This document shows, piece after piece, positions 16,579 through 58,500 of a stretch of 64,000 bases of DNA. The notes under the pieces are model-generated. The model was not told the origin of the DNA and searched no databases. It was given only the letters and a program-made list of their open reading frames with translations. The position numbers were made by a program, and so were the translations under genes. Source of the DNA: a virus (taxonomy: Duplodnaviria > Caudoviricetes); the IMG/VR virus record IMGVR_UViG_3300012979_000004, positions 1 through 64,000 of that record, one strand, 5' to 3'. Position 1 is the first letter of the stretch; the number at the start of each line of letters is the position of its first letter.

Positions 16579-16766
16579 ATATGTTTGCAGTACATATAGA
16601 CTGTATATCAGCCCTCGTATCGAGGGCGGGACTTGGTTTATCCCAACCAAGCGGATTAAGTGCAGCTTTACGCAGCAGATTACCAGTAACATCTCCAGTC
16701 TGCACTACGTCTTATGTGTATGTATCTAGAATATACTTCCAGCGGCATAAGAATCAGCTGTATTTG

Positions 16767-16844
16767 TGCGAAGAATGGGATTTGAACCCATAGACACCAA
16801 TGTTTGTAACATGGTTGCTGAATACCAATATCAGCTTTCTTCGC
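16767..16844 (-). tRNA. Atypical tRNA, anticodon ACA
   Basis: GCGAAGA/TCTTCGC acceptor stem, GCTGA/TCAGC D stem, anticodon loop TTACAAA, T arm ATGGG-TTCAAAT-CCCAT. Confidence 0.65.
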
Positions 16845-23272: not shown

Positions 23273-23317
23273 CAACGAGGTCCTGGGTAAGACTAAAAAC
23301 TGCCCAACTTTCAAATA

Positions 23318-23374
23318 AACTGTCGGGTTCACCAAGACCCCTGATGAGTCGCTGAAAATTGCGACGAAACAGTT
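23318..23374 (+). ncRNA. Type III hammerhead ribozyme 1 (predicted cleavage after GUC, 23324)
   Basis: AACTG-TC / GGGTT..GACCC / CTGATGA / GTCGC..GCGAC / GAAA-CAGTT. Confidence 0.9.
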
Positions 23375-23875
23375 AACATCCGTAGCCAATTATCAAGAAT
23401 TGTCTGTAGTAATAACAGTCAAGTTGTCGGTAAGATAAACTGAAACCGTCTAATTAATCCACTGATAAATAGGTGGACCATTTAAAAACCTCTAAAGAAT
23501 AAACCACTATATTCGTACTATACCCGTTTGTTAGTGGTTTATGTATGCACAAATTCATTATCATTATTATGTCGTACGGTGGTGTAAGTTTGGTCGCTTA
23601 TGCCACTTCTGAGTGACATTAAATTGTACACACATGCAGCAGATCCTAAATTAGCTGCATTGAGGGGCTAAAACAGTTTAGACCGACATTGAAAGACCAA
23701 TGTAAACTGTTGATGCCTGTGTGTACTAGTCTCGATTGCATGACGAAAAAATGAACTTGGTTAGTCATTAGGAGCAATCTAAATGCAATGCTGCGATGTT
23801 GGTCTATACTCAACAACAGCAAAGAAAACACCAAAGGAACGGTTTATGACCGTTCCTATTGGTTGTTTGATACAA

Positions 23876-28348: not shown

Positions 28349-28954
28349 ATGGCAAAAGAAAAGAAAGACGTAGCAGTAGCTACTGAAGTACAGAGCACAT
28401 CTGCAGAAAACATCCGTGAGCAGCTTGACAACGCAAGCATGGGTCGTGTAGAACTTGCAAAAGCAGCACTCGAAAAGATCAGCAAAGATCGTGATGAGAG
28501 AACTCAGAAAGAAATGATGGTACGCTTCCAGAAGGCGCAGTATCGCATCGATCAGGGTTATCTCAACCTTCGCAGAGAGCGCGACATCGCAAAGATTACA
28601 CAGGCTGAACTTGCTCACACAGACCGACTCGCACGTTATCTTATGGGCTTCGAAGTCACCGAAGAAAAGATCAAGCACATCATAAAGACACCAGATGTGA
28701 TCTTCGAAAAGGAAACAGTCGATGAGAAGAACAAGACTGTGACGGTTGTATTGACCGACGGTGAGAAGAAGACATTCAAGGTAGGCGAACAGGTTCCGCC
28801 AATCATCGACTATGTCGATTATGATAGCCTCTATACAAAGATTCGTGATTACACGAGAAAAGAATCCGACAAGATCGAAAAGGAGCACAGCAACTATACT
28901 AAGAAGCTCCAAGCTAAGTATGGAGAGTATTGGAACCATTCTTGGTACTATTAA
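28349..28954 (+). CDS. Hypothetical coiled-coil protein
   Basis: 201-aa ORF with AT-rich leader. Confidence 0.8.
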   Translation: MAKEKKDVAVATEVQSTSAENIREQLDNASMGRVELAKAALEKISKDRDERTQKEMMVRFQKAQYRIDQGYLNLRRERDIAKITQAELAHTDRLARYLMGFEVTEEKIKHIIKTPDVIFEKETVDEKNKTVTVVLTDGEKKTFKVGEQVPPIIDYVDYDSLYTKIRDYTRKESDKIEKEHSNYTKKLQAKYGEYWNHSWYY

Positions 28955-28957
28955 TTT

Positions 28958-29291
28958 AGCGACAGGAAACTATATCTAAAGCGCAGAATCTTAGAATCAG
29001 TCGTTTGTAATGTAAGATAAATCGCATCAGAGGGCATGGGGCCGAGTATCCGAATTTTCTTACAGATAGTTGAATCAACAACATCGGCATCGAGTCACTG
29101 AACCATATGTCGAGGATGTATACTCTCTGATCTCACGGAGTATAAACTATGAGACCATTTGATCAAACCAAAGAAAATATGAGAATCTTAGAATCTGTTT
29201 TGAAATAAATTGAAAAATATTAGATTCAAAACACATGTTTTCATCAAAAATGCGAATACACCTATTACAGAATCTTAGAATCAGCTAATAG
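28958..29291 (+). repeat. Array of hairpins with repeated loop AGAATCTTAGAATC
   Basis: Exact copies at 28985, 29182 and 29269 and a variant GAGTCACTGAACC at 29092, each inside a different stem. Confidence 0.7.
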
Positions 29292-29442
29292 TCACTGTAT
29301 TATTAACAATAGCCAAAAACGCTCTGTATTGCGATATATTTGACGGTATGAAGTAGCTACCACACCAGATAAGAAATCACCACACAGAGCCAAATAAAGG
29401 CTATTTAGAGCATAATCTGATCAATTATGTTTCTATCGAAGT

Positions 29443-29650
29443 TCTAGCTTGTGTGAAATAAACTATTCGGACGAGGGGGCAGTACCCTCGCGGTCCACAA
29501 AGAAAGAATGTAAGATTTTGGGCCGCAAATAGTGTTTGACGGGTAGTGGATATAAACACGTTAAGCTATTACATAAATCTAACTGGCAATTCTTATATTG
29601 CTGACTACACTAAGCTGGCAGCTTAATGGTTCTCTAATTGAGATTTAAGT
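29443..29650 (+). ncRNA. ssrA: Circularly permuted (two-piece) tmRNA; outer ends approximate
   Basis: Acceptor piece first (GAGGG-GGCAGTA-CCCTC-GCGGTCC-A, ends 29497), 22-nt spacer, then coding piece GGGCCGC (29520) giving G3-U70. Tag GGC..GCA GCT TAA at 29585-29626. Confidence 0.88.
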
Positions 29651-29676
29651 CACGTGCTAACTACGAAAGTGAGGAC

Positions 29677-29735
29677 GGAGATAACTAAGTTTAACGTTAA
29701 CTGGAGTTTTGGCGGTTCGAATCCGCCAATCTCCG
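29677..29735 (+). ncRNA. D-armless tRNA-like element directly after the tmRNA
   Basis: GGAGAT...TGGCGG-TTCGAAT-CCGCCA-ATCTCC-G. Confidence 0.6.
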
Positions 29736-29746
29736 CATCTACAAAA

Positions 29747-30217
29747 ATGAAAAAAGGTGGATATAAAGAAATGCTAAGAGATCGCTGTCCAAGGACAGTA
29801 TCTGCAGCACTAATATGGTGTAAAGCAAAACAAAGATGGATAGACCATGTCTACGACAACTTTGTAAGATTCTTAATGTACGATAAAAAAGCTAAAGATC
29901 AACAAGTTAGAACCTTGTTAGGACTTAGTAAAAATAATCGTAACATGGAATTCAACAGCACCATAAATTGGGAAGATCTTTCAAAAGAAGAAAAAGAATA
30001 CTGGGAATCTGTTTCAAAATGGGTAAAATGGTTCGAAAAAAATATAATAATTATTGCAGAATTATACACCCACTATTACATAACAGTTCATGGTAAATTC
30101 AGCAATGATTTTGTAAAAAACCGTATAATAAATACGGCATTTACAAACATTGATAAAAGTCTTCATGAAAAGCTTTATAAATATACAATAGAACACATTA
30201 AAAAATATTATGTATAG
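29747..30217 (+). CDS. Hypothetical protein; TAG stop
   Basis: Likely start MKKGGYKEML after the RNA element. Confidence 0.7.
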   Translation: MKKGGYKEMLRDRCPRTVSAALIWCKAKQRWIDHVYDNFVRFLMYDKKAKDQQVRTLLGLSKNNRNMEFNSTINWEDLSKEEKEYWESVSKWVKWFEKNIIIIAELYTHYYITVHGKFSNDFVKNRIINTAFTNIDKSLHEKLYKYTIEHIKKYYV

Positions 30218-30665
30218 TGTATTTTCCCAACAATTGATTGAACATTGGTGTAATGTGTACAAAGCACAACATCGATGTAAAGACGTACCAACGGAAATCA
30301 TACCATCTATAGAAGAAATATTGATGGAAAAACCAAGCATGATACCATGTGTCATGTATTGTAACGTGATTTCAACTTTAGACTATATTGCGGAAGAAGC
30401 AATTTATACATATTGTACTAAAAGTGAAGTAAGAAAAGTAGGGGAATGGATTCACAAGAATTTAGTAATAGAGATGCCAAACATGAAAAACCGTAAAACG
30501 GTTGATGTTAAGCTTCGAATTGCTGTAGACATGTTGAATAAACTAGAATATAATGGTATAATAACAAAAGATATAAACTTGTTTTACTTTCACAATATAG
30601 TAACAAATCTCTTAGATCTATGGGTATGTATACATTTGGCACAATATGACGAATTACCTTTCTAA
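30210..30665 (+). CDS. Hypothetical protein ending YDELPF
   Basis: 151-aa ORF. Confidence 0.7.
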   Translation: MYSVFSQQLIEHWCNVYKAQHRCKDVPTEIIPSIEEILMEKPSMIPCVMYCNVISTLDYIAEEAIYTYCTKSEVRKVGEWIHKNLVIEMPNMKNRKTVDVKLRIAVDMLNKLEYNGIITKDINLFYFHNIVTNLLDLWVCIHLAQYDELPF

Positions 30666-30672
30666 GAGATAT

Positions 30673-30757
30673 ACCAAGATGTCGGAATTGGTATACGAGA
30701 CAGACTTAAACTCTGTTGGTCATATCGACCGTGTGGGTTCGAGTCCCATTCTTGGTA
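30673..30757 (+). tRNA. tRNA-Leu(UAA)
   Basis: Cloverleaf with long variable arm; anticodon loop CT-TAA-AC. Confidence 0.9.
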
Positions 30758-30816
30758 CAGCGGCTAACATCCGTTACGCGAGTGACACGCTAATAACTGT
30801 TAAAAACTTAAAGCTT

Positions 30817-31377
30817 ATGAAAAACCCTAAAATTACTCCAGAAGAAATTAAGGTTATCAAAGCTGCACAAAATGGAAGCATACCAGCTTTCAATTGTATA
30901 TTTAAAAGATACAAATCGTTTGTAAGCAATATATTATATGGCTACATTAAAGATAAAGATGAAGCTGATGATATAACAAATATTGTATTTTTAAAAGTAT
31001 ACGATAAACTACAGAAATTCACAGCCTATGACTCTTTCGGAGGATGGTTGAGAATTATAGCTAATAATACAGCTGTAGATTATTTACGTAGAACAAAACA
31101 CACACCTATTGTGATTGATAATGTAGATGTCCGACTAACATCTTCAAGATCAATTAGTTCAGATGAAAACGACATTGTCAACCGTTTAACATATGAACAG
31201 ATACTCAAAGAGTTTAACGCCCTCTCTGAGCAAGCACAAAAAGTATGTGAATTGTTTTATATAGATAATATGACATCTGAAAAAATTAGCGAAGTGTTGC
31301 AAATACCAATAGGTACAGTGAAATCACATTTATCTAGGTCACGCAACAAATTACGTAAACAATTTAAAACAATTTAA
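30817..31377 (+). CDS. ECF-type sigma-70 factor
   Basis: Region 2 DEADDITNIVFLKVY...FGGWLRIIANNTAVDYLR; region 4 EKISEVLQIPIGTVKSHLSR. Confidence 0.9.
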   Translation: MKNPKITPEEIKVIKAAQNGSIPAFNCIFKRYKSFVSNILYGYIKDKDEADDITNIVFLKVYDKLQKFTAYDSFGGWLRIIANNTAVDYLRRTKHTPIVIDNVDVRLTSSRSISSDENDIVNRLTYEQILKEFNALSEQAQKVCELFYIDNMTSEKISEVLQIPIGTVKSHLSRSRNKLRKQFKTI

Positions 31378-39635: not shown

Positions 39636-39875
39636 AATATGATAACAAATGCGATTGTATTAAATAACACAATACATGTGTTTATAAAAAGTGACTCAAA
39701 TTGTTTAAAGTGTTCATTGCGAAATAAATGTAAGTCTTTTCATGAAGATTCACCATGTATGATATTTGAAGATCATGGGCATTTTGAAATAAAAAAGACT
39801 TGATTTTATCGCAAAATTAAAGTGTAGGGTTTATACATTCCTATAACAAAGTATTAACGCAAAGAACTATAAGTC

Positions 39876-41753
39876 ATGTGTATACGAAATTGTAGGATAG
39901 ACGTCTATGATATAGAAGTTTTTCCAAATGTATTTCACTGTTGTACAAAAAATACCGAAACTGGAGAAATAAGTAAATTTGAAATATCTGAAAGAAAAAA
40001 TCAATTAGATGAATTGGTATCATATTTTACCAATAAAGAATCAAAGATAATCTGCGGATACAACAATCATCATTATGACGATGTTATAATAAATTATATA
40101 ATAGATTATCATTCTAAACTAATTAGATTGCCATACTGGAAGATATGTAAATCTTTATTCGGTTTATCACAAACTATTGTAACAGCAGAAGATGGAGACG
40201 TTGACAGATTTAAAAAATGGAAGTATGCGCATTACTTCTATTCTATAGATTTGTTAACTATGCAATTTAGTTCTAAATTACGAGTAGGTCTAAAAGAACT
40301 TCAATTAACCATGCATTATAAAAATGTGCAGGAATATGAAGGTGATTTTGAAAACAATCTTCCTACAAATGAAATAGACAAAATGATCGCATATAATATA
40401 AACGATGTAAATTCTACAACAGAGCTATTAAACATTCTTAAAAAAGATATAGAATTACGTTTGTTTATATACGATGAATATCACATTGACGCATTGTCGA
40501 TGGATAGTGTTAAGTTTGGAGAAAAACTACTAGCAGAACGTTATTGTGAAAGCGCACGCATACCAATGCGATTGTTAAAGACAATGCGTTCACCAATGGA
40601 CAATATCCCTTTAAAAGATGTTATATTTCCATTTATAGAATATAAAAATCCAAAATTAAAAGACGTTCTCGAAGATATGAAAAGGCAAATAGTATCTTCA
40701 AAAGAACGCAAAGGCTACGAGAAGAAGTTTGTTCTCTCGAACGTGGTGTATTCAATCGGAGTTGGTGGTATACATTCAATACACGATCCAGAAATATTCC
40801 ATCCGGGACCTGACGAGTATATCGGACACAGTGATGTGGCGTCGATGTATCCGAGCTTACTGATAAAGTATGAACTTACTCCCAGACACTTAGGTAAAAC
40901 ATTTTTGAAAGTCTATTCTAAACTATATGAAGAACGAATAGAAGCAAAACATAGCGGACAGAAACTTAAGAATCTTGCCTTAAAATTGACTCTTAACTCT
41001 GTTACGGGGAAAATGCAAGAAGAAACAAGTTGGATGTACGACCCATTTAACGTTTTCAAAATACGTATTAACGGACAGTTGATACTATTGATGTTGGTGG
41101 ATCGTTTGCTGGAACTTAATTGTAAGATTGTACAAGTAAATACAGATGGTGTTGTTTATATCGCTAAGAAAACCGCTTCTGAGGCCATTCAGGGGGCTAT
41201 TTCAGAAGTAGAGCGTATAACACAACTTGTTTTTGAAAGCGACAACTATGAGGCGTTTTATCAATACGCAATCAACGATTATTTTGGAGTTGTTGAGGGT
41301 TATTCGCAATCTAATGACCCTAAATTGATAGAAAAGAAAGGAATGTTTATCACTGAAACAAAAATAGGTAAAGGACTAGCACCGGTTATTATACCTAAAG
41401 CAGTGATTAATTATTTCTTAACAAAACAGCCTGTATCTGAATATATCAGACAGCAGACCGATATAAAAGATTTCTTAATGGCACAAAGAGTCAATAAGAA
41501 ATTCAAAGTCCGACACGGCAATCAATTTGTACAACGTATAAATCGATATTATGCTAGCACAAACGGTTATTCACTTTATAAAGTAGATTCAGACGGTAGT
41601 GAAACAAACATGTTAACTAAATCTGGAGTAACAATACTTAATAAAATGGACGACTTAAATATACAAGACAGGCATATAAATTATAACTATTATATAAGCG
41701 AAGCTAATAAGATAGTATATGATTTAGCTTGTCAACAATTAACTCTATTTTAA
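39876..41753 (+). CDS. DNA polymerase family B
   Basis: Exonuclease motif YDIEVF; polymerase motifs DVASMYPS, KLTLNSVTG, VNTDG. Confidence 0.92.
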   Translation: MCIRNCRIDVYDIEVFPNVFHCCTKNTETGEISKFEISERKNQLDELVSYFTNKESKIICGYNNHHYDDVIINYIIDYHSKLIRLPYWKICKSLFGLSQTIVTAEDGDVDRFKKWKYAHYFYSIDLLTMQFSSKLRVGLKELQLTMHYKNVQEYEGDFENNLPTNEIDKMIAYNINDVNSTTELLNILKKDIELRLFIYDEYHIDALSMDSVKFGEKLLAERYCESARIPMRLLKTMRSPMDNIPLKDVIFPFIEYKNPKLKDVLEDMKRQIVSSKERKGYEKKFVLSNVVYSIGVGGIHSIHDPEIFHPGPDEYIGHSDVASMYPSLLIKYELTPRHLGKTFLKVYSKLYEERIEAKHSGQKLKNLALKLTLNSVTGKMQEETSWMYDPFNVFKIRINGQLILLMLVDRLLELNCKIVQVNTDGVVYIAKKTASEAIQGAISEVERITQLVFESDNYEAFYQYAINDYFGVVEGYSQSNDPKLIEKKGMFITETKIGKGLAPVIIPKAVINYFLTKQPVSEYIRQQTDIKDFLMAQRVNKKFKVRHGNQFVQRINRYYASTNGYSLYKVDSDGSETNMLTKSGVTILNKMDDLNIQDRHINYNYYISEANKIVYDLACQQLTLF

Positions 41754-44539: not shown

Positions 44540-44564
44540 TAAGAACTAAAAGTCAAAGGAAATT

Positions 44565-45188
44565 ATGTATAGTACAAAAACAGCAACAACAAACAATAAT
44601 GAGTTTAATAGCTCATATATGCCCGTAGGTATCAACGATAACGTAAACTTGAGTGCAGTAAACGTACTTAAATCACAGCAAGGACGTGACTATATTGAGT
44701 TTGTATTTACAAACGAAAATGGTCAAACTGCATCATTTACGGAATGGAAGAATGAGAAAAACATGTGGATCAAAACTGACGAAGATTTACAACGTCGTGA
44801 CGATCAGCAGTTTGGTCGAATTCTTCAAATTATAAACTGTTTTTATGACAAAACTCCAGAATTTGAGGGAGCAAGCTTCTTTGAAATGATCAATTGGGTA
44901 AAGGCAAAACTTGACCAATTTATCAACAGCAACCTTCCTAAAAAGGATTTACGTCTTAAGGTAGTTTATGACAAAAAGGGATATACAAAAGTATCATCTC
45001 TTGGCGTATACGTTGAGCCTATGAGTATAGAAAAGTCTCAAATTAAGCTTTGGAAGAACGATCTTCTTGAGCGACCCGTCGTAGCCGATAAGGAAGACGA
45101 TCCGCTTGTTGCAGCAGCTAATGAAGCATTACTGTTGAACACTCCGGTAAATGAGACAACTACAGGTGCTGACGACCTTCCGTTCTGA
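44565..45188 (+). CDS. Single-stranded DNA-binding protein
   Basis: Follows Sak4; acidic tail ADDLPF. Confidence 0.7.
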   Translation: MYSTKTATTNNNEFNSSYMPVGINDNVNLSAVNVLKSQQGRDYIEFVFTNENGQTASFTEWKNEKNMWIKTDEDLQRRDDQQFGRILQIINCFYDKTPEFEGASFFEMINWVKAKLDQFINSNLPKKDLRLKVVYDKKGYTKVSSLGVYVEPMSIEKSQIKLWKNDLLERPVVADKEDDPLVAAANEALLLNTPVNETTTGADDLPF

Positions 45189-45666: not shown

Positions 45667-45695
45667 CAACTATAACAATAAAGAGCTATAAGCCT

Positions 45696-46673
45696 ATGTA
45701 TAGTACAAAAACAGCGATCACAATGAGTCTGAAAGACTTATTAGAAAAAGTTGATGACTATGCAATATATTCCTACTATCTTGGAGAATTTAAGATAGGA
45801 CAATTAATGAATAGTCCATTAAGATCTAACGATAAGATGCCATCTTTCGCTGTATTTAAAGGTAGAAATGGTGTATTGTTATTTAAAGATCATGGGACAG
45901 GAGAATATGGTAATGCTCTTAAATTCATGAAATTGTATAAAGGAATACAAACAAGAGATGAATTAGAACGAGAACTGTTGCGCATCGTCCGAAAAATGAA
46001 TCCTATGCGTGGTGAGGTAAAACCAACATACACGAAAACGGTGGATTTAGGGCCAACAGATATTGGAATAGTTCGTCAACCATTCACAGAAGTAGATAAA
46101 AGATATTGGAAGCAATTTCATATATCTTTAGACACTTTACGAAAGTTTAATGTTTTTAGTATAAAATACTTTCTTTGTAATAGAGTCGTCAGAGGAACCT
46201 ACAAAGAAGCTAATCCTATGTATGCATATAAAGTGTATGATAAATTTAAAATATATCGTCCACTAGCCTCTAAGTATACTAAATGGCGTACCAATTTGAC
46301 AAATAGGCACGTTCAGGGTTTAGCCGAGTTGCCTAAAGAGGGTGGTAATCTCTTAATCATTACGAAATCTTTAAAAGACGTAATGTGTTTATATGAGATG
46401 GGGTTTTATGCTATATCTCCTTCAAGTGAAACAACATTTATTCCAAATGATATATTACAATCACTAAAGAATAAATGGAAAAACATTGTTATACTGTTCG
46501 ATAGAGATAAAACAGGAATGTTAAAGGCTAGAGAATATAGTAAACAGTATAAGTTTGATGCATTGTTTGTCAATAAGAAATTTAATGCAAAAGACATATC
46601 TGATGCAATTATGTATAACACATTCATTCAAGTTAGAACCTGGATGATAAAAGAAACTGAAAAATATTTATGA
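45696..46673 (+). CDS. DnaG-like primase
   Basis: SPLR..DKMPSF..FKDHG N-terminal region; TOPRIM motifs IITKSLKDV and LFDRD. Confidence 0.85.
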   Translation: MYSTKTAITMSLKDLLEKVDDYAIYSYYLGEFKIGQLMNSPLRSNDKMPSFAVFKGRNGVLLFKDHGTGEYGNALKFMKLYKGIQTRDELERELLRIVRKMNPMRGEVKPTYTKTVDLGPTDIGIVRQPFTEVDKRYWKQFHISLDTLRKFNVFSIKYFLCNRVVRGTYKEANPMYAYKVYDKFKIYRPLASKYTKWRTNLTNRHVQGLAELPKEGGNLLIITKSLKDVMCLYEMGFYAISPSSETTFIPNDILQSLKNKWKNIVILFDRDKTGMLKAREYSKQYKFDALFVNKKFNAKDISDAIMYNTFIQVRTWMIKETEKYL

Positions 46674-46918: not shown

Positions 46919-47291
46919 CGGTAAAGTGAAAAATGCGACAAAGGTCGATAAGTATGGGCTACATTTTCGTAGCAAACTCGAATGCTATACTTATGAAGCT
47001 TTTATGAAAGCTGGAATACCAGTTAAATATGAGCCAAAGCATTTCACATTACTTCCTAAGTTCGAGTATTTAGGGGAAAAATTACGTCCTATAACATATC
47101 TTCCAGACTTTATTGGTAAAGGTTTTGTAGTAGAATGTAAAGGTCTCATTGGAGATTCTTTTCCTCTTAGATATAAACTGTTTAAGTATTATCTAAAAAG
47201 GCACAACAGTAAAATGAAGTGCTATCTTGTTAGAAATCATAAACAGGTAGATGAAATGATTGAAGAACTATTAAGTCAAAAGAAATCATGA
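46911..47291 (+). CDS. PD-(D/E)xK endonuclease (T7 endonuclease I/DUF1064-like)
   Basis: FRSKLE...YEP...YLPDF...VECKG. Confidence 0.8.
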   Translation: MNNGKVKNATKVDKYGLHFRSKLECYTYEAFMKAGIPVKYEPKHFTLLPKFEYLGEKLRPITYLPDFIGKGFVVECKGLIGDSFPLRYKLFKYYLKRHNSKMKCYLVRNHKQVDEMIEELLSQKKS

Positions 47292-48073: not shown

Positions 48074-49071
48074 TGGATTTAAGCATACCTTATTACTCAG
48101 ATTTTTCGCGCATCAGTAACTCAAATGTAGGTTGGTTTATAAAAAAAGGACCAACTTATCTACATAAGATGCTCACAGATCCACCTCCAGAGGAAAAAAA
48201 TAGTACTCTGGAGCGTGGAACTATGATACATTCTTATTTGCTACAACCCGAAGAGTTCCAAAAAGACTATGTAGTCTGGGACAAACGTAGACCATCTTCT
48301 GCTCAGCAGGAAAAGTTCTGTCAGGAGTTAGCAACTAGCCTTGAAATAGAGCCGAATAAGGCCGTTCTAAGCGCATATAAAGCATCTTATAGTACAACTA
48401 ACAAGTCCGAAGAGAAAATGCTCTCAGAGGGCCTTAAAATAGCTTCTGAGCTATCTGAATATATTCAATTCTTAAAATCCAATGATAGTCGAAAGATGAT
48501 TGGAGTTTGGGATGTTAAAATGTTAGAAACTATCTCACAAAACATTAACGATCATAAACTTGCATGGAAAATTATTAACCCTCCTGAGGTAAATGAAAAT
48601 GGTGAAAATCATCATGAATTTCATATAAATTGGGAGTATGAAACACTCGATCAAGGTACGATAAAATGTAAATCATTACTTGACGGTTTTACTATTGATT
48701 TTAAAAGCAAAACGATAACTATATACGATTTGAAAACTACAGCTAAATTATGGCATTTTGAAGACAGTATGTTAGAATATGACTACTGTCGTCAATTGAT
48801 GTATTATAAAATGGCAGTAGAATGGTATATGTTGAATGAAAGAAATGTTGATGTTTACGATGGTTGGAAATTTATATTTTATGTCATAGGTATAGATACA
48901 GTAGAAGATTACTCTATACGTGTATTCGAAATACCATTTGCTAATATTGCAGAACGTGAATATACTATAATACAAGCGTTAAATAATATTGCATGGCATC
49001 AAAATACAAGTAAATGGAGACATTCTAAAGAATATTACAGTAACAACGGAAGCGAAAAATTAAACTTATAA
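48070..49071 (+). CDS. RecE/DUF3799-like PD-(D/E)xK exonuclease
   Basis: ISNS, GTMIH, KSLLD, DLKTT, YCRQLMYY. Confidence 0.8.
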   Translation: MMDLSIPYYSDFSRISNSNVGWFIKKGPTYLHKMLTDPPPEEKNSTLERGTMIHSYLLQPEEFQKDYVVWDKRRPSSAQQEKFCQELATSLEIEPNKAVLSAYKASYSTTNKSEEKMLSEGLKIASELSEYIQFLKSNDSRKMIGVWDVKMLETISQNINDHKLAWKIINPPEVNENGENHHEFHINWEYETLDQGTIKCKSLLDGFTIDFKSKTITIYDLKTTAKLWHFEDSMLEYDYCRQLMYYKMAVEWYMLNERNVDVYDGWKFIFYVIGIDTVEDYSIRVFEIPFANIAEREYTIIQALNNIAWHQNTSKWRHSKEYYSNNGSEKLNL

Positions 49072-49085
49072 GAATCTTTGAATCA

Positions 49086-49601
49086 GTGAGTTTACATTTT
49101 AAGTTAATAATACCACTATTAGACAATTCTATAACAAAAAACAATTTAAGTACTAAAGCTGGATTTGTAGATGCATTTTCTGCAGATATAAATAGGCCAT
49201 ATCTCGATAATCATATATTTTTATTATATGCATACAATGTGTTAACGAATGAAGCTTTTGATACTTATAAAAAACTAAAAAGCGCAAAAGGATTATACGG
49301 TGTATATAAGTTTAAAATAAAAGGAATCCCATTTATTATGTTTGCTTTTACAATAACAAATAAAACTATTAAAAATATAATGAGTGGAGCAGTAGCATTA
49401 AGTGATGTAGAAAAAATGCGAGTTTTTGCATTTTGGAATTTGCAAGATTCTGATATAAATAGATATATGCTAAATTCAACATATGCTTGGAATAGTAAGT
49501 TTGTTAATAATGTGATCCCAGAAGAAGATTATCAACCAGATACTGAAATCTTCTGGGATAAAAAAAGCGGAGCACTCCAATACAGGAGTGTCCCGCTTTA
49601 A
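49086..49601 (+). CDS. Hypothetical protein
   Basis: 171-aa ORF, last gene of the rightward block. Confidence 0.65.
   Translation: MSLHFKLIIPLLDNSITKNNLSTKAGFVDAFSADINRPYLDNHIFLLYAYNVLTNEAFDTYKKLKSAKGLYGVYKFKIKGIPFIMFAFTITNKTIKNIMSGAVALSDVEKMRVFAFWNLQDSDINRYMLNSTYAWNSKFVNNVIPEEDYQPDTEIFWDKKSGALQYRSVPL
49564..49599. terminator. Bidirectional terminator between the convergent modules
   Basis: AAAGCGGAGCACTCC...GGAGTGTCCCGCTTT hairpin flanked by A and T runs. Confidence 0.6.
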
Positions 49602-49667: not shown

Positions 49668-52600
49668 TCAAAAGTTCATTACTGTAGAATTTGCCTTATT
49701 TGTTTTTGCTTTATTTGTTTTTCTGGAATTGTTTTTGTTCATAGCGTCCGAGTCGTTATCAATGTAACCAAAAAATGTTTGTTTCAATCTCTATTCCACA
49801 CTGGCGTTAGGATCATAAAAATATTCAGAAAAACTTGTGCCTTTCGGATTATAAACCATACCGTATACACCACGTTGCGGTTTTAACTCACCGTCTTTTG
49901 CTTTACGTAACTGTCCCTTTTCGGTAGTCACCTAAGGTCTATAAACAAGCATATTTGTAGGAAACACTTGATAATACCAAGTCGCTGTTGAACGTAAACC
50001 GTGAACAGATCCGTCAATTGCGCCTTGTCTATACAGATTGTCAAAACCTAACTCAGATACACCAGGTATCAACGCTGTTGTTCTAGACATGTCTCGCATC
50101 CATTTTTCTTTACCTTTATATGAACCTGTTTTGATTTGCTGGTACGCTTCGATATTCCCATTTCCTCCAGTAGCGTCATCGTAAATCATTGCAGCCAAAT
50201 CTCTAAGAGCGTCTACAGCGTAACCAAAATCTTGATAATACGCTGTAAGAACAGCAGGAGATTTTATAATGTCTGTAAGAGTAAACACTAAACCGGCAAA
50301 CCACAGCTATGCAGAAGTTTCAGAAATAGCAGTCGTAGCCGCTGTATATAGCAACCAGTATACCCAATTGTCAGGATCGTCTTCAATAAGCTTTCCGGTT
50401 GTAAACGTAAGTAGAGAAGTTGCTAAAACAGAGAATATGGTACAATTCATCCTAATGATAACATACTTTTGTTGATCGGTCAACGTACTACTTTCTGCTC
50501 CTATTTTATCCAACATAGAATCTGATAATGCAAATTTAATAAGATTCCAATCCTAAAATAGTTTTGAGTACGCTTTTATAAACGGTATGACCGTCCAAGC
50601 ACCCTGTCTCGTACCTCCAGCTAAGAAGTCATACTATCCTCGGTATTCATCTGCAGCTTCCTGACGTATCAATCCGACACCAGAATCATAAACACTTCTC
50701 ATAGCTCGCCCATATAATTTTTCTAACGCACTCTTACTCATGTCTGTGTTATCGTCGTCATATACAGCAAAGTCGTGTCCGTCTTTATTATAGTCAACCT
50801 GTTGAGCAACAGCCCACCCACGCATCTATAATACAGCAGCACCTATAAAGGTGGTGTGCATACCATTTCTATCATAGGTATCAAGAATACCATTGATGAC
50901 CGATACACGTTCTCTAATAAATCCTTCCACTTGTGTTTCAAGTTTATTTGTTCTACGACCAGTCTCTTCGTTTATTACAGGGCGAACAAGATCTTCGAAT
51001 TCTGGTTTCAGTGTATATTTACCATCCTCGTCTACATAAAAAGCATCAGCGAGGGTTGTTCTTGAGTATACGGTTTTACCAAGGTCATCGACATGAGCTA
51101 TGCCTCTTCGCCATGCTTTTTTACCGTCGCCTGCCGTGTAACCAGCTCTTGTGTAATAATACTAAGCTTGTTGTTTTGTTGCAAAAACAGGCTTACCACT
51201 CTAAGGATCTTCTATCAATCTTACACTGTTGTAGATCATTTGGGTTATCAACCCTTTGTATAAATAATCCACCAAGTTGTATTCTCCCATAGAGCCATGA
51301 TTTTTCAGTACTCTACGTACCCACCATTTATTGGTATCTTTAAATATTTCGCTTATAGAAGAGCTTATTCCGTTTGCCTACATCATTGCAGCTGTTTCAC
51401 TACGAGTATTATATCTACCAAGCGGTATTGATTTTATAGTATTTGGTATGTCTTTTCCTATTCTTTTAACAGCTTCTTTAAAACAGGAAATATCAAAATC
51501 TCGACCTGATGCTATTTCAGCATAAAGAGTTACGCCAGAACTATACCAGTTTCTAAGTACAGAAGGCCATTTATGTACCATAAGTTTACTATGTGCAAGA
51601 CCCATCATCTTATATATACTTTTTGATATAAGTTGCTACACACGACCCATTTTTACACCTGGGTTTACGCCCTGACGCATACGGCCATACATATACATAC
51701 TCTTATGTGTATCAAATCTCTTTGATTGATCGCTAACGCCCTCAGAGCGGCCTGCAAATCCACCTTTAAGTTGAAATCCAACAAGCTCCCATAAAGGCTA
51801 CATTATAGACTTGTTTTCGAAGTTACAAGCCGTTTCTGTAAAGTCTACGAGCAAACTTATGAGATCTGTCTTTATCATGTTTTTATCGTCAAGATCTCTC
51901 ACACCGCGTATTGGTATTGTTTCTACATAGGTTCCGTCAGGTCGTAATTGAAATTCTTCATTGTACTCCAAGTCTGTTTCATTTACACCAGATTCACCTA
52001 TAATCGCCTTCCACAGTGTCTTAGCTCCATGTTTTCTTGTAAATAGTGAACCAAACTCGTCTCTTTGTTGCGGTAACCGATACCTGTTTTTTCTATAGGT
52101 GGATGGCAGTTTTGCCCACATTTCATCTAAAACATTTAAACAATCGTCGTAGAAATCCTTTATTTTAGAATTGTTGTTTAATATTTCTTCAAATTCACGA
52201 TCGCGGTACATTTCTTCGTCGACTTGTATGTGCTCTGGTTTCGTAGGGTCATACTTCTAGTCTACAAATAAAGATGATTCTTCGTCTATTTCTGAAAATA
52301 TACCTGTTCCACTAGGACTTTCAACCCACATTGGATTTACAGGAGCGCTGTATGAAAAAGCACTCAACGGTGTTATTACTTTTTTACCGTCTTTGGTAGT
52401 TTTTGTATATGTGAATTTGTCATTAAATTCACTTTCCTTCCCTGCCGCAACATACTAATCGTATAACCAGCTGTAATACGATTGAGATGTTCCAAACTTT
52501 TTAACTTGCAGTCGATTTGTTATCGCATTAAGATCCTCAACATCCTGTTTTGTCAACTTTTTAGAAGTGTCGCGATTCTTGTATATCTGCTCATCTATGC

Positions 52601-55514
52601 GTTTCAATTCAGCCCACGCTTCGTCGTTGAGTTTATCCAAATTTGGCTCAAAATACCCACGTCTGTTAAAACACGATCTCAATATTGCATTTTTTCTGGC
52701 ATTTAACTCCGCAATAATGGGGTTTTTGTTGTTGCCAATGATTTTGTTTATTTCTTCATAGTACTCCTAAGATAACTAAGTGGTTGAGTTTTCGTAATCA
52801 AACGCGTTAAGAAGCTGTTGTACGTCAAGATCTGTATAAAGCTGGCCTGTTAATGGGTTGGTAGCAACTCCTATTTTAGCAGAATACTCGTTCTCCAGTT
52901 TCTCTCTAACTAATTTATAAGCCTGTGTGTTATTTGAATATGCCACACCTGACGAATTACGTAAGTATGCTTTCCAGTTGATTAATTCTTGTGCAATCCT
53001 AGCATCATCGCCAGATTTTGGTATAAATTTTGAAATTTTACCATAAGCGTCATGTACAACTACATACGGGTTGGACAGCTCCTCTTTTTGTCTACGAAGT
53101 TCTACAAGCCTTTCACGGTCCAATGGTTTTAATTTATACGTCAAAGGTGCTTTTATTGTGCGAGTTTTTCCATTTGGCAGAGTTATATCTACGTTGTCTA
53201 TACATTTGTTTTCTATTTCACGTATTTCTCTGTTGATGCCATCCAATTTGTCAATTGTAGTCTTAGATAGATACTGTCTACGGGTTTTATAATAATCCGC
53301 CTTATACCTTCTATGTCCTCCTATTTTTTCTATATAGTCATCAAGCTCGTCATTATAAGAACGCCAATCGTCACCATTGTTGAACGTTATTGTACCATCG
53401 TTTTCATCTACTTCGGCATTGTACTTCTCTAAAAGCTACTTCTTCTTACTTTCAATCTTTTTATCAAACGCACCTCTGTTTATAGAAGATCTAAGATTTC
53501 CAGTATAATCTCCATCTTCGTCGCGTTCGTATAACAATTTTACATAATTGCTAAACGGACCCATTATTTTCCTAAATTCTTTTTCTGCAGCTTTATATGA
53601 TTTACCAAGCCGCCTTCCTACAGTATCAACTTGATTTCTAGTAAGAGCGTTCTATTGCCTTAACGCAAAATCAAACATTCTTATTATCGGCGAATCTGAT
53701 GCAAATCCTCCTTTCAACAACCTGTCAAAAAACGACAAGTGTCCGCCGTTAATCTTGTTCTATAACCATTCAACCATGTTGTATATAAACCTGTCTTTAT
53801 CCCCAACAACAAGTTCTTCGGCTTTATTCTAAAGCATCTACTGTGTATACAACAGGTTTAGCTTATCGAACTCGTCTTCAATAATGCCCATCTTACCTCG
53901 AATAAGATCTACAGCATCCATAAACGAAGTTCCTTCTGAAGCAACACCGGTGGTATCCTCTTTAGCCCATTTTATAACCCATTCTTTGATAAGGTTTTTG
54001 TAAAAACCAATAACATTATGCCTAATATTATCAAGCTGCGCAGCATTAATTTGTTCTATTGGCATATTCTTCATCTGTTCGATTAACTAATACGCATTAG
54101 CAGTTTCTGACAAACCCTTTATGACAAACTATTCCATAGCGACAATTCTTGCAGAATCTTGTCGTGATTTATCTAGATTTTCAATAGCGTCTAATTGTGC
54201 TATTGTTTTCTTTAACTCTGCAATTTGTTCTAATTCGTTGCCAAGTAGTGCAGCAGGCTAAGATTTCTCTAAAGCTGTTATTCTAGAAACAAGGCCGCTT
54301 CTGATACGTGACACAACATTTTTTATCGTAACGTGCTGACTCTTTGGTCTAGTTATATAAAATATCGTGTTCAGCTCTTTGTCTGTAGATCTAATTAGGT
54401 CTTGAGCACAAGAAAAATATACAGCCAATGCGTCAAGCGTATTGCGTTGCAACTGCCTGTTTTCAGCACTTGTTTTACGTCTAAACAGCTCACGAAAAAA
54501 TTGTCCAACGCTAAACCAAAAGTTATTTAACTTTTGTTGTTTTTCAGTACGCTTAAGTTTACCAACTACATAATCCGTGGAAAGTTTTACTAATCTTTCT
54601 GGTCCGAGATCATTTCCGTGAACATCTTTAATAGTCTAAAACAATTTCTGCATGAAATCAGCATCGTAGAACATACGTATGTACTATTCTACTATGATTG
54701 GAATTGTGGTTGAAAGATCTCTGTTGTTTAAAACACTATTTAGAAGATGGACGCTTATAAGATGTTGTGTGTTCTAAACTACGGTAGACATGCCTGGATT
54801 AGCGAATCTGTATGATAAAGAGTTTAAGAAAGTTGCTCGCATGCTACCAAGTTTTGTAGAACCTGTATATCCGTCTAATGGGTTTCCATGAACGTCTACA
54901 AAACCTTCAGCAAGGTGTGTCTGAATGGTTGTTATTGCTTTATCTAGAGTTCTTTTATCGTAATCAGCTTCAGCCAACTATCTAACTCTTGCTATCTGTT
55001 CTGTCGTAGCGTCTGGGTTGTTATTTAATAAGTCTTCAACAGCCTGTTTGGCTTCAGCATCACGCTCTTCTCGCACAGCACTCAACACGACAGGTGTGCT
55101 GTTTACTACGTTAGACAGCTCTAGATTGGCCAATCGTTCCACAACCACCTAGTGGTTACTAAGTATGTCTTTTATAGCGGTATGATCAACCAATACTGGA
55201 TCCGACTACAATGTTGTTATAGACGGTTCTTCGCTACCGTTGGAGGCGTCATAGTTTTCATGCCAATTTCCATATTTGTCTACATATAAAGGAGTATAAA
55301 TTACAGATTTTGCAAACACTGCTTCCTCCTCTGTCATTCCGCTTGAAATTAGAGCTGAATATAATTCTGATTGGGTTCCGTCAGGAGCCTAATCCAAAGG
55401 CAGTCCATTATTCATAGACACAACATAATAGGCAGCACTTTCGCTGCCTAATATGTCTGTGTATTTTTTAAGTAATGCCTTAATTTCTGGGTGTGATTTT
55501 ACTAAACATTGCAT
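49668..55514 (-). CDS. Giant putative virion cargo protein (1948 aa, TAG=Gln)
   Basis: Ten track fragments share one frame from ATG 55514 to TGA 49668; adjacent to the vRNAP gene as in crAss-like phages. Not every codon was checked by hand. Confidence 0.8.
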
Positions 55515-55530
55515 AATTTATCATCCTTTA

Positions 55531-58500
55531 TTAAAATGGAAGATCTTCAAATCCGCCATTACATTTATCCTCTTGTTTTTTACCCAAATTGGACAAGTAA
55601 ACAATCTATTCCTTTCGTATCTCATCATCCAATTCGCTTATTTGCTAGCGAATGGCATCGGCAGAAGCATTAAGTTTTTCCATCGCTTCTCTGCCTGTCG
55701 ATATATCTTCTTCAGACCTATCATACTATTTAGAAATAGCACTTTTCACAAGTTGTATAACATCATTATCTACGTTTACGTCGTGGTTGCTTGCAATAAG
55801 ATTTGAAAATTTAGAAACGTTAATGACGAACTTGTAGAATGGTACAGTGACTTTCCCAAATACGGGGCTATACTCTTCTCTAACATCTTCTTGTATGTTT
55901 ATTAGATTTTCGATATCGTTTCCAAACATCTTTTTAAGATTTTCAACTCTCTCGTTCTTTTCGCTTTTTCCACGGTACCACTCAGACTCTACAGATTTAA
56001 AGCCGTTTAACTCTAAATAGTTCAAAATATTATACGCAATTGTGAAATAATTACTTTTTACGGAATTGTCCAATCTTGCAAAATTGTATTTATTGTCAAA
56101 TAGATGTTCTGTTGGAAATATGAAAGGTGAAGTAACAACATTTTCACTGATATTAATTCTCATACTAACGAGACCAAATATACTTTTACCGTTGTCTATA
56201 AATCCGTTTATACCTCTAAGCTTTCCTGCGGGAGTATTTATAACAAACGGATCGTGTTCTATCGGAGATATAAACTACTTTTGTACTACCTGTTTTTTAT
56301 TTACGACCTCTCTTAGTCGATTTGTTAAAATCCAACGTTGTTCGTGTAATGCTCCAATGCGGCCTTCGCCAAACGGAGATACTGGTTCTGAAACATCGTC
56401 AAAGATTTTCTGATCGTCATAAACAGACTTGGACGACGTAATCACCGGTCTTCCGTATTCATCGTTCTTGATTTCAAATATTGTAGACTATATCGCTTCA
56501 AGACTATATACTCTGAATGTAATTCTTGCGCTGGATTGGTCTTGTGTTAATTTTTCCACATTGCCTACAATAGACATAAACATAGGACCATCTCTAAAGA
56601 CTACTATTTGTCCGTCATTTAATTTACCTTCTTTGCCAGGCTCGGCCTCAAAAGAATAGTCTACTATATCTCTAGGAATATTTACAGTTACGTCTGCTGT
56701 ACTATTAGCAGAATCTAAATACTCATCAAAGCGTTCAAGTTGTGGCAATATCTGTTCGTATACAACCTTCTTGTTTACAAAAGACACTGTGTTGCTAGAT
56801 ATAAACAACTTGTAGTTTTCCTTAGCCCTGCGATTTTCTTCGGCATATTTGTCCATCAATTCCTTACTTGGATTTGTAAGAAGAGTGACCATTGCGTCTT
56901 TTATAGTCTTTTCTACAGATTTATATTCTTTCTATACTCCAAACAGTTTTAGTATTGCAGAAATAAGTTTGTCGAATATATTCTTACCTTTGTGTCTTCT
57001 ATCAAAATCACGAATGTGCGCCAAGAATTCAGGTTTTGATATTTCTGCAATCATTTCAATAGGGCTAGAATACCCGTAAAGATCGTCAGACTGTATCCAA
57101 AATTCAAACGCTTTTTCAACATTCATTCCACGACTCGATATACCTTTTTTATCGAAATGTTGTTCTATGAAATCTTGTTTAAGAAGGTCGTAGCAATATT
57201 CTATTTCTGTTATAGCTTGTTGAATTTCTTTAGGTAGATTAGACCTGTTTGCAGTTTTTAGATAATAACAAGTAACTGCATGAACGGATTCGTGTAATAA
57301 TGTATTTGGCTACAATGCGTCCGGGTTATACAATATCTTATTCTCACTAGCAACAAATCTACCACTAACCCCTTCTCCAAGATCTGCGGATTCAAACGTG
57401 ACACCAGTACCATCTAACGCATTAAATACAAGTTCTGTTAATTTTGCATTAGGCGCGCCTTCTCCGAATTGCTATATTAACTGTTGCTTAACACCTTGTA
57501 TAGAACTTTCACCGCGTTTTCTGTCGTCAAGTTCTATCGGGGTTTCGATATAAGAAGAGCCATATAACTCTCCGTCATAAAATTGAGAATCTCTAATAGG
57601 AGCATCTATATTATAAAACTCTTTTATATATTTTACAACAAACGGTGTGTGTAAATCTTTATAATTTTTATAAATATTTGCGTATTTGTATAAATCAGAT
57701 GGTTCTTTTGTTCTAGAACCAAGCATTAAATTGGCGTGTTCGGCAGAATTCTATAATTCTTTCAACTGTTTATGAAGTGATAATAACTGTTGTGATGCAT
57801 TATCCGGTAATTGAACATCTGCGGCGCTAAACATGTTTTCCATAATTTTTCGTAGCACGACATATGTTTTGGATCTACGAGCTATTCTATTATAGTCGCG
57901 TCTGCTTTTATCCAGATCTCTCACAACATTTAACACACTAGGGTCTACTTCTTTTGACCTTCCGGCATGCATTCTTGCGAGAACGGATGGCGGCAATGAT
58001 CTTTCATCGGTTACACTATTCTACTTCTTCCACTCTTCATATTCAGAATCCGTCATATTCTAGTATACGTTTTCATACTCAGTAGCTCCTTTCTTGATAA
58101 GTCTCGGTTTGCGTTCTTCTTGTACACTATTTTGTTCTGCTCTAAGTTCTTCGCGTACTTCCATGAGAATTCTTGGGAACTCCCTAGAATATTCTTTTCT
58201 GCCACGAGTATGTGTCAACTTAACATTACCGGTAGAAAGAAGTCTATTTCGTGCAGTTTCATTTTGTTCAAACGAAGCCTTGATAAGATCTTTCAATATC
58301 TCATATTTATAAGTATTCCAATCTGTTATATCTAACTTAGGAACTTCTCCTCCTAATTGTTTAGCTTTTGCAGAAGTAGCGGCGTTCTATATGCTTTTAA
58401 ACCATTGATCTCTTTCTTCTGCCATCATGTCTGTATAGAACACCTTTGCAGCCTGGAAAGCTCTTTCTACAGATTTAAATTCATATTCTTCGTTGCTACC

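Follow-up and report, generated by a model that had tools for sequence, protein, structure and literature searches.

A structured non-coding RNA domain with four related hairpins precedes the permuted tmRNA of a crAss-like phage and shares its loop motif with replication-gene starts

Related RNA systems and the genomic setting

The regulatory RNAs CsrB and RsmZ, which act on CsrA and RsmA, carry several hairpins whose stems are unrelated but whose loops share one conserved element. This element also overlaps the translation starts of the targets, and the copies on the sponge look stronger than those on the mRNAs. The phage locus analyzed here is alike in each of these respects. It is unlike CsrB/RsmZ in that the loop element of the 109 hairpins gathered in this study lacks the GGA (A-N-G-G-A) motif, in that the conserved element is a structured mini-helix and not a single-stranded loop, and in that the RNA follows a coding gene, apparently lacks a promoter of its own, and is probably fused to the transcript of a tmRNA. 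Phage translational operators offer a second comparison. The coat proteins of MS2 and PP7 act on the replicase start, RegA and gp43 of T4 have operators of this kind, and in T4 one repressor covers several replication genes. As in these systems, hairpins with bulged bases contain or abut the start codon of a polymerase or another replication gene in the genome studied here. The motif, the host phylum, and the phage family are different, however, and there is in addition an array of four operator-like copies on a non-coding RNA; no homologue of RegA or of a coat-type binder was identified.

The 5′ region of permuted tmRNAs (RF04321; PMC11915505) is similar in position, immediately preceding the acceptor piece on the strand of the latter, and the region described here resembles it further in possessing an H-type pseudoknot. 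In contrast to the ~70 positions that lie 5′ of the matched part in the alphaproteobacterial model, however, it spans ~490 nt, it is covered by no Rfam model (the RF04321 match begins only where the domain ends, leaving the whole of the latter outside the family model), it bears four copies of a motif shared with mRNAs, and in some relatives it precedes a tRNA. Its one pseudoknot lies outside the tRNA-like domain and is not equated here with any of PK2-PK4. Long intergenic RNAs, expressed above most genes, have also been reported from the early/middle region of the crAss-like phage phi14:2 (bioRxiv 10.1101/2020.03.07.982082). Compared by description only, these are alike in being long and non-coding and in their place in the early/middle part of a crAss-like genome, but their description mentions neither hairpin arrays nor a link to tmRNA. 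Our search of the literature and of Rfam 15 found no description of the motif or of the domain.

The window, that is, the 64,000-nucleotide stretch of DNA analyzed here, covers the first 64 kb of a virus record that is 99,927 bp long and carries direct terminal repeats, and the nearest named relatives of the phage are crAss-like phages from the pig and human gut (cr272_1 and cr273_1; Suoliviridae). The tmRNA that follows the domain (Table 1) is itself followed, all on the + strand, by a tRNA-like element, two small genes, a tRNA-Leu, and an ECF-type σ-factor. In relatives, the place of the tRNA-like element is taken by tRNA elements called by ARAGORN or Rfam (L126 Ile, L122, L133). The longest ORF call for the σ-factor, 30646-31377 (+), overlaps the tRNA-Leu (30673-30758); its true start is probably an ATG ~20 nt upstream of 30844 (M-K-N-P-K-I-T), matching the relatives. 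Elsewhere in the window, a type III hammerhead ribozyme at 23317-23375 (+) scores 49.7 bits, barely above the Rfam gathering score of 48.5. At 16766-16844 (-), ARAGORN predicts a tRNA-Cys of 79 nt whose anticodon, at position 38, is ACA; Rfam gives it only 36 bits, and with its odd anticodon and length, it may be a miscall or a recoding tRNA. The late region on the minus strand (window 50000-64000; G000 64001-95000), read with table 11, contains short, fragmentary ORFs with few matches in relatives, a pattern consistent with stop-codon reassignment in the late genes of this phage group.

The array and the RNA domain that contains it

An earlier note on this stretch of DNA, made by inspection of the sequence, had pointed out a 14-mer that occurs three times upstream of the tmRNA. 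All three copies, at 28985, 29182, and 29269, are exact, and copies 1 and 3 have a 17-mer in common. Throughout the 99.9-kb genome, the 14-mer is found only at these three sites and, with one mismatch, at 49071, in every case on the + strand. Three exact copies within 300 nt cannot be chance. A shuffle test that allowed up to 3 mismatches was uninformative (19 matches vs. 12.4 expected), and a scan of viral contigs for the exact 14-mer returned single scattered matches only, equivalent to chance. The variant that the note had listed at 29092 is a true member of the family, with the letters G-A-G-U-C, 3 nt, G-A-A-C-C, bringing the array to four hairpins. The stems proposed for copies 2, 3, and 4 are borne out by folding and by the relatives; the stem of copy 1, in contrast, is a proximal one (28979-28984 with 29000-29006) and not the distal one that had been drawn from 28959-28964. 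The note's view that the array is not a CRISPR also stands: the exact copies are spaced 197 and 87 nt apart, only the loops are conserved, and the intervening parts are themselves a conserved, structured RNA.

Table 1. Features of the domain, its neighbors, and the gene-start copies of the motif. Positions are those of the window; the start-codon offset is the first base of the codon, counted from the base after C13.
Feature	Position	Strand	Remarks
201-aa gene	28349..28954	+	always ends a few nt 5′ of hairpin 1 in relatives
Structured non-coding RNA domain (5′ domain)	28955..29445	+	between 201-aa gene and permuted tmRNA; conserved
Hairpin 1	28974..29010	+	stem 28979-28984 with 29000-29006; core 28986-28998, then A at 28999
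Small hairpin 5′ of hairpin 2	29069..29079	+	in relatives, covarying stem and conserved A-A-U-U-A-A-type loop (alignment by inspection)
Hairpin 2	29080..29116	+	stem 29084-29090 with 29107-29113; core 29092-29104; G-U / A-C variant of the R-Y pair
H-type pseudoknot	29119..29154	+	stem 1 29119-29125 with 29138-29144; loop 29131-29135 with 29150-29154
Palindromic U-G-A-U-C-A element	29158..29167	+	palindrome 29160-29165; nearly invariant; follows pseudoknot
Hairpin 3	29171..29207	+	stem 29174-29179 with 29196-29201; core 29183-29195
Hairpin 4	29258..29294	+	stem 29262-29267 with 29286-29291; core 29270-29282
3′ subdomain	29321..29429	+	long helix 29321-29340 with 29371-29390 around conserved G-U-A-G-C-U-A-C-C (29353-29361)
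Hairpin with C-U-G-A-U-C-A loop	29411-29429	+	second U-G-A-U-C-A copy at 29420-29425, beside tmRNA body
Circularly permuted tmRNA	29446..29626	+	Rfam RF04321, 58 bits vs. cut-off 47
Permuted tmRNA by ARAGORN	29408-29717	+	
Permuted tmRNA, parts	acceptor piece end ~29498; coding piece from 29520; tag reading frame 29585-29626	+	
tRNA-like element with perfect T arm	29677-29737	+	directly 3′ of tmRNA coding piece; not called tRNA here
Motif at polB	39864..39878	+	offset 1; A after motif is the A of ATG at 39876; U-A inner closing pair
Motif at 207-aa replication-module gene	44543..44567	+	ATG, offset 11
Motif at 325-aa gene	45683..45698	+	ATG, offset 2
Motif at 261-aa gene	47265..47290	+	ATG, offset 11
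Motif hairpin at 171-aa gene	49060..49096	+	core 49072; in 14-nt gap between two genes; GTG, offset 2

The feature extends beyond the limits first given for it (28958-29291). It is real but larger, bounded by the stop codon at 28954 and by the tmRNA that begins at 29446, and in place of the free RNA of ~350 nt that had been envisaged, the data indicate an element of ~490 nt that is contiguous with the tmRNA. This entire stretch is homologous across an alignment of 23 diverse loci, which share not only the hairpins of the array but also the small hairpin before hairpin 2, the H-type pseudoknot, the two U-G-A-U-C-A elements, and the long helix with its G-U-A-G-C-U-A-C-C segment. The two U-G-A-U-C-A copies could pair with each other, either as a long-range contact or between molecules. 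When the pseudoknot was scored on a MAFFT alignment fitted to no structure, 84% of cells were able to pair, compared with 60% in shuffles, all 10 of its 10 pairs had changed on both sides, and the pairing collapsed once one partner was slid along the other. Because it contains this covariation-supported pseudoknot, the region 28955-29445 is a structured RNA; it is not a DNA operator.

By thermodynamic folding, the hairpins are weak, and neither they, taken singly, nor the domain reach a significant z-score. For hairpins of the A-U class, RNAfold favors an in-register pairing that is impossible for the G-C class, and covariation backs the slipped register. Even at a permissive threshold, Rfam 15 has no family for 28955-29445, where the only row at E <= 10 is a chance-level microRNA on the opposite strand (E = 7.2), and the large ornate RNAs (GOLLD, ROOL, and the others in Rfam 15) have no match at E <= 10 in 28900-29800. 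The + strand of the domain contains neither a σ70-like promoter nor an intrinsic terminator, and the only promoter-like site nearby sits 5′ of the 201-aa gene. Thus, with no promoter-like or terminator-like site on the + strand within the domain, it is likely that the 201-aa gene, the 5′ domain, and the tmRNA are cotranscribed.

Conservation and pairing of the loop motif

A first search for related loci that used the 201-aa protein as the query found nothing. Relatives were instead reached through the σ-factor, which led to 15 and later to 80 related loci on viral contigs, and four further loci came from close relatives of the 201-aa gene. In ~70 of the 80 loci from the second σ-factor scan, three or four hairpins with the same loop design are present between the 201-aa homologue and the tmRNA. 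Where ARAGORN missed a tmRNA, Rfam gave either a tmRNA or a group I intron at that position. The introns, which score 82-84 bits and occupy the expected site of the permuted tmRNA in L121/L151 (L121 1833-2129), L150 (2120-2365), and L205 (1558-1884), probably split the T-loop of the tmRNA; ARAGORN finds no tmRNA there. In L203 and L210, the domain precedes a tRNA-Arg, and no tmRNA was found in the locus. ARAGORN calls the tRNA 3′ of the L203 array tRNA-Arg(tct), and thus not a suppressor. One lineage (L138; genome G011) has kept the RNA scaffold but has other loops in most of its hairpins, and a model scan of the whole 91-kb G011 genome gave no motif match. Weak variants of the motif remain at a few gene starts of this genome, such that the joint loss is not clean.

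The record of L164 (G015; 162,493 bp), which is 60% longer than its relatives, contains two separate arrays, one at ~24.3-24.6 kb and the other at ~133.0-133.3 kb; it may be a concatemer, or a chimera assembled from two phages. L264, L265, and L266 each have one more strong hairpin (1501-1537) that does not mark a gene start but lies in non-coding sequence ~7 kb 3′ of the array, perhaps as part of a different non-coding RNA. These three loci belong to the U class defined below.

Reduced to its constant features, the loop motif reads G-W-R-Y-C, 2-4 mostly U-rich nucleotides, G-W-R-Y-C, and then A. The actual letters vary from genome to genome and from hairpin to hairpin within a genome (A-A-U, A-G-C, A-G-U/A-A-C, U-A-U, and U-G-C). 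To examine how they vary, 109 distinct hairpins were gathered with a search pattern in which the variable positions were specified only as purine or pyrimidine, a selection that by itself gives complementarity in about half of the cells for each pair and in about a quarter for both. Complementarity was far more frequent: both R-Y pairs are strictly complementary in 104 of the 109 hairpins vs. ~1/4 expected. At R3:Y12, the combinations are GC (61), AU (46), and GU (1), with a single mismatch; at Y4:R11, they are UA (59), CG (47), and UG (3). C5:G9 switch together to U:A, while G1 and C13 are invariant. Positions W2 and W10 always agree: 75 hairpins have A,A, 34 have U,U, and none is mixed. Because R3:Y12, Y4:R11, and C5:G9 covary and G1 and C13 do not change, the best model of the core is a G1-C13 pair, a bulged W2, R3-Y12 and Y4-R11 pairs, a bulged W10, a C5-G9 pair, and a short apex. 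The “loop” is therefore a small inner helix with two bulged W residues and not a single-stranded motif. Judged by inspection only, the core does not appear to be a T-loop, a sarcin-ricin motif, or a kink-turn in all classes; for the kink-turn, the invariant G1 and A14 could pair, but the second pair would be W-C (W standing for A or U), and the bulge is of 1-3 nt and on varying sides.

The outer stems differ completely in sequence between copies and contain compensating changes. At a fixed register only 53% of outer-stem cells pair, because the length of the internal loop varies; in the slide control, pairing was 72-75% at register 0 and dropped to <41% at every other register. A covariance model built from the hairpins recovered 91 matches at E <= 0.05 in 37 loci (400 kb, both strands), and 91 of the 91 are on the strand of the tmRNA. 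Collectively, these results uphold part of the interpretation in the earlier note, an RNA-level multi-hairpin element with conserved loops on variable stems, for which covariation analysis now shows compensation. The note had regarded nonconservation of the motif, or stems not maintained in homologous loci, as the observation that would speak against it; both the motif and the stems are kept.

The same data bear on the possibility that the repeats constitute an element of double-stranded DNA, such as iterons, an operator cluster, or a cluster of GANTC methylation sites, the last two of which the note had offered as its alternative. There are indeed nine GANTC sites in ~300 bp, all within 28986-29282, and the motif can be written as a direct repeat of a pentamer. 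However, relatives carry G-A-G-C-C or G-U-A-U-C in place of GANTC, and the window as a whole is not enriched in the site (196 GANTC vs. 221 expected). The pentamers are complementary midway and not identical (G-U with A-C), a pairing scheme that cannot be read as a direct repeat or as a palindrome in duplex DNA; the strand bias is complete, and the compensating stems include coding bases. The duplex-DNA reading, and that of GANTC methylation with it, is thus largely refuted.

Gene-start copies and a candidate control circuit

The motif is not confined to the array. Counting only full motifs with complementary R-Y pairs, this genome has 16 on the + strand and 5 on the - strand; of the 16, four make up the array and five lie at gene starts in the replication module (Table 1). 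These five copies are 0-11 nt before the start codons and, except for that at 49072, have a weaker U-A inner closing pair. In the gene-start hairpins, the start codon or codons 2-4 provide the 3′ strand of the outer stem, as in the hairpin at the 171-aa gene, where the GTG start at 49086 falls within the 3′ strand of a 9-bp stem. Whole-genome model scans were carried out on 18 related records in addition to this genome, and most of the 18 relatives have matches outside the array on the same strand. In the ten relatives whose flanks were read, the extra matches coincide with the ATG of two genes, polB and the one for a Sak4-like ATPase. Moreover, the A or U class of the W positions is concordant between array and gene starts: where the array is of the U class, the Sak4-like start is likewise of the U class. 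On the σ-factor tree, the U class appears in at least two places, a pattern that mosaic genomes could give without independent switches. A motif-like string before the σ-factor gene of relatives is coding sequence (K-N-P-R-I-T) and was discarded as a false positive of both pattern and model.

Strand-specific hairpins at the starts of replication genes could in principle be promoters of the kind known from N4, formed in single-stranded or extruded DNA and read by the phage virion RNA polymerase. The virion polymerase of crAss-like phages transcribes denatured DNA, and no linear early-promoter consensus was found in phi14:2 (bioRxiv 10.1101/2020.03.07.982082); Watson-Crick covariation would also suit a DNA hairpin. 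The motif, however, abuts or contains the start codon at polB and at the Sak4-like gene, leaving no room for a downstream start site, and replication genes are middle genes transcribed by the host polymerase in crAss001 and phi14:2 (PMC8375218; bioRxiv 10.1101/2020.03.07.982082). With the array, in addition, inside a covarying RNA fold that includes a pseudoknot, we consider a hairpin promoter very improbable.

The explanation that we favor, tentatively and at slightly less than an even chance of being right, is that the hairpin is a recognition site for a trans-acting RNA-binding factor and that the array is a four-site decoy or platform for that factor. In this model, the array would form the 5′ domain of a long non-coding transcript that runs into the permuted tmRNA, and each of its four hairpins displays one small RNA structure, consisting of a variable outer stem, a short internal loop ending in A, and the core, whose apex is 2-4 U-rich nucleotides and which is followed by the invariant A. 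What reads this nearly two-fold symmetric element would most likely be a trans-acting RNA-binding factor, probably a dimeric protein of the phage. The weaker form of the element, with the U-A inner closing pair, places replication start codons inside or just after a hairpin, where binding would gate translation, while the four strong copies beside the tmRNA would serve as a multivalent decoy or loading platform that sets the level of free factor. The symmetric structure, the strand bias, the position at start codons, and the genome-wide concordance of the letters all argue for an RNA element that is read by a trans-acting factor whose specificity can change. The copies in the array have the stronger C-G inner pair and cleaner stems than those at gene starts, as decoys should. 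The comparison with CsrB and RsmZ, which the earlier note had drawn, is in part retained, as the occurrence of the same motif at replication-gene starts supplies concrete candidate targets for a sponge. Nevertheless, the element is sponge-like only and not a member of the Csr/Rsm family, because it has no GGA motif, its loop is an inner helix, and CsrA (PF02599) has no match in the phage genome or in the Bacteroides thetaiotaomicron control.

By synteny, the 201-aa protein, whose gene lies 5′ of the array in every lineage, is the obvious candidate for the factor. It is predicted to form a long helical hairpin and a small β-domain (pLDDT 84) and has a conserved basic, arginine-rich patch (LRxRRRE-like). 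However, it has no match in Pfam or PHROG and none to any known fold, RNA-binding ones included, its top PDB rows are nonsignificant coiled coils, some of them from ribosome-quality-control factors (E 0.16 or worse), and it is also present in the motif-poor lineage. A comparison of gene content, in genomes too divergent for a clean test, revealed no gene that is common to the motif-bearing genomes and absent from G011, and thus no gene lost along with the motif; no candidate for the factor emerged from the family, fold, and gene-content searches. The thermodynamic weakness of the hairpins and the persistence of weak gene-start variants in the motif-poor lineage also count against a recognition hairpin with a decoy, and a pure sponge would leave the constant linkage to a tmRNA or tRNA unexplained.

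That linkage would fit a hairpin that is an RNA processing or stability element, a signal for cleavage by, or protection from, a host or phage ribonuclease. Such a signal would have long middle-class transcripts cut near start codons and the precursor of the tmRNA or tRNA trimmed, or would shield newly made 5′ ends from decay. The sites are at gene junctions and beside tRNA-like elements, and in one relative a T-arm-like hairpin directly precedes the polB site. The array is always 5′ of an RNA that needs processing, be it the tmRNA or, in L203/L210, the tRNA-Arg, and the lack of an internal promoter or terminator makes a long precursor likely. On the other hand, the total helix of ~10-12 bp is short for sites of the RNase III type, cleavage at sites that overlap start codons would destroy or strip the initiation region, the need for four sites in a row is unexplained, and no nuclease candidate was found. 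We regard a processing element as unlikely.

Alternatively, the 5′ domain might be an integral part of an outsized, two-piece tmRNA, taking the place of its pseudoknot ring, and its hairpin a structure bound by the 30S subunit or a ribosomal protein. In hosts that make no use of Shine-Dalgarno pairing, the hairpin would serve phage mRNAs as well, by recruiting ribosomes to them. The domain adjoins the acceptor piece without an intervening terminator and contains a bona fide pseudoknot; permuted tmRNAs are known to have protruding 5′ regions outside the Rfam model (PMC11915505). The distance between the motif and the start codons is that at which ribosome-binding elements sit, and the phage encodes no SmpB of its own. 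In L203/L210, however, the domain can evidently exist without a tmRNA, a start codon buried in a stem suits repression better than recruitment, and the switches between A and U class look like coevolution with a variable partner and not with the conserved ribosome. We consider such a role in the tmRNA unlikely, and slightly more so than one in processing. The more specific proposal that the hairpin is a ribosome-docking structure that replaces the Shine-Dalgarno sequence for replication genes in Bacteroidota hosts, with the four copies tethering the tmRNA to ribosomes, appears distinctly improbable. If it were true, then the array and the tmRNA would together be one functional two-piece tmRNA of giant size (~0.75 kb) that has a new domain for targeting.

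No viruses are more abundant in the human gut than the crAss-like phages, and to our knowledge almost nothing is known of the post-transcriptional control of gene expression in them. The present study defines a compact, covariation-supported RNA motif, a four-site non-coding RNA that is physically linked to a phage tmRNA, and a candidate regulon that comprises polB, the gene for the Sak4-like ATPase, and other genes for replication. New here are the model of an inner helix with bulged W residues, the agreement in A or U class between an array and the gene starts of its genome, the lineage poor in the motif, the pseudoknot, and the loci in which the domain stands before a tRNA. The array and the gene-start copies point to a previously undescribed circuit of control at the RNA level, and the motif is short and modular and hence directly testable. 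If a protein does bind it, as the recognition model supposes, the phage would carry an operator-plus-decoy circuit of its own, in a phylum without CsrA, and this would give a first handle on the purpose of phage tmRNAs and of their long leaders.
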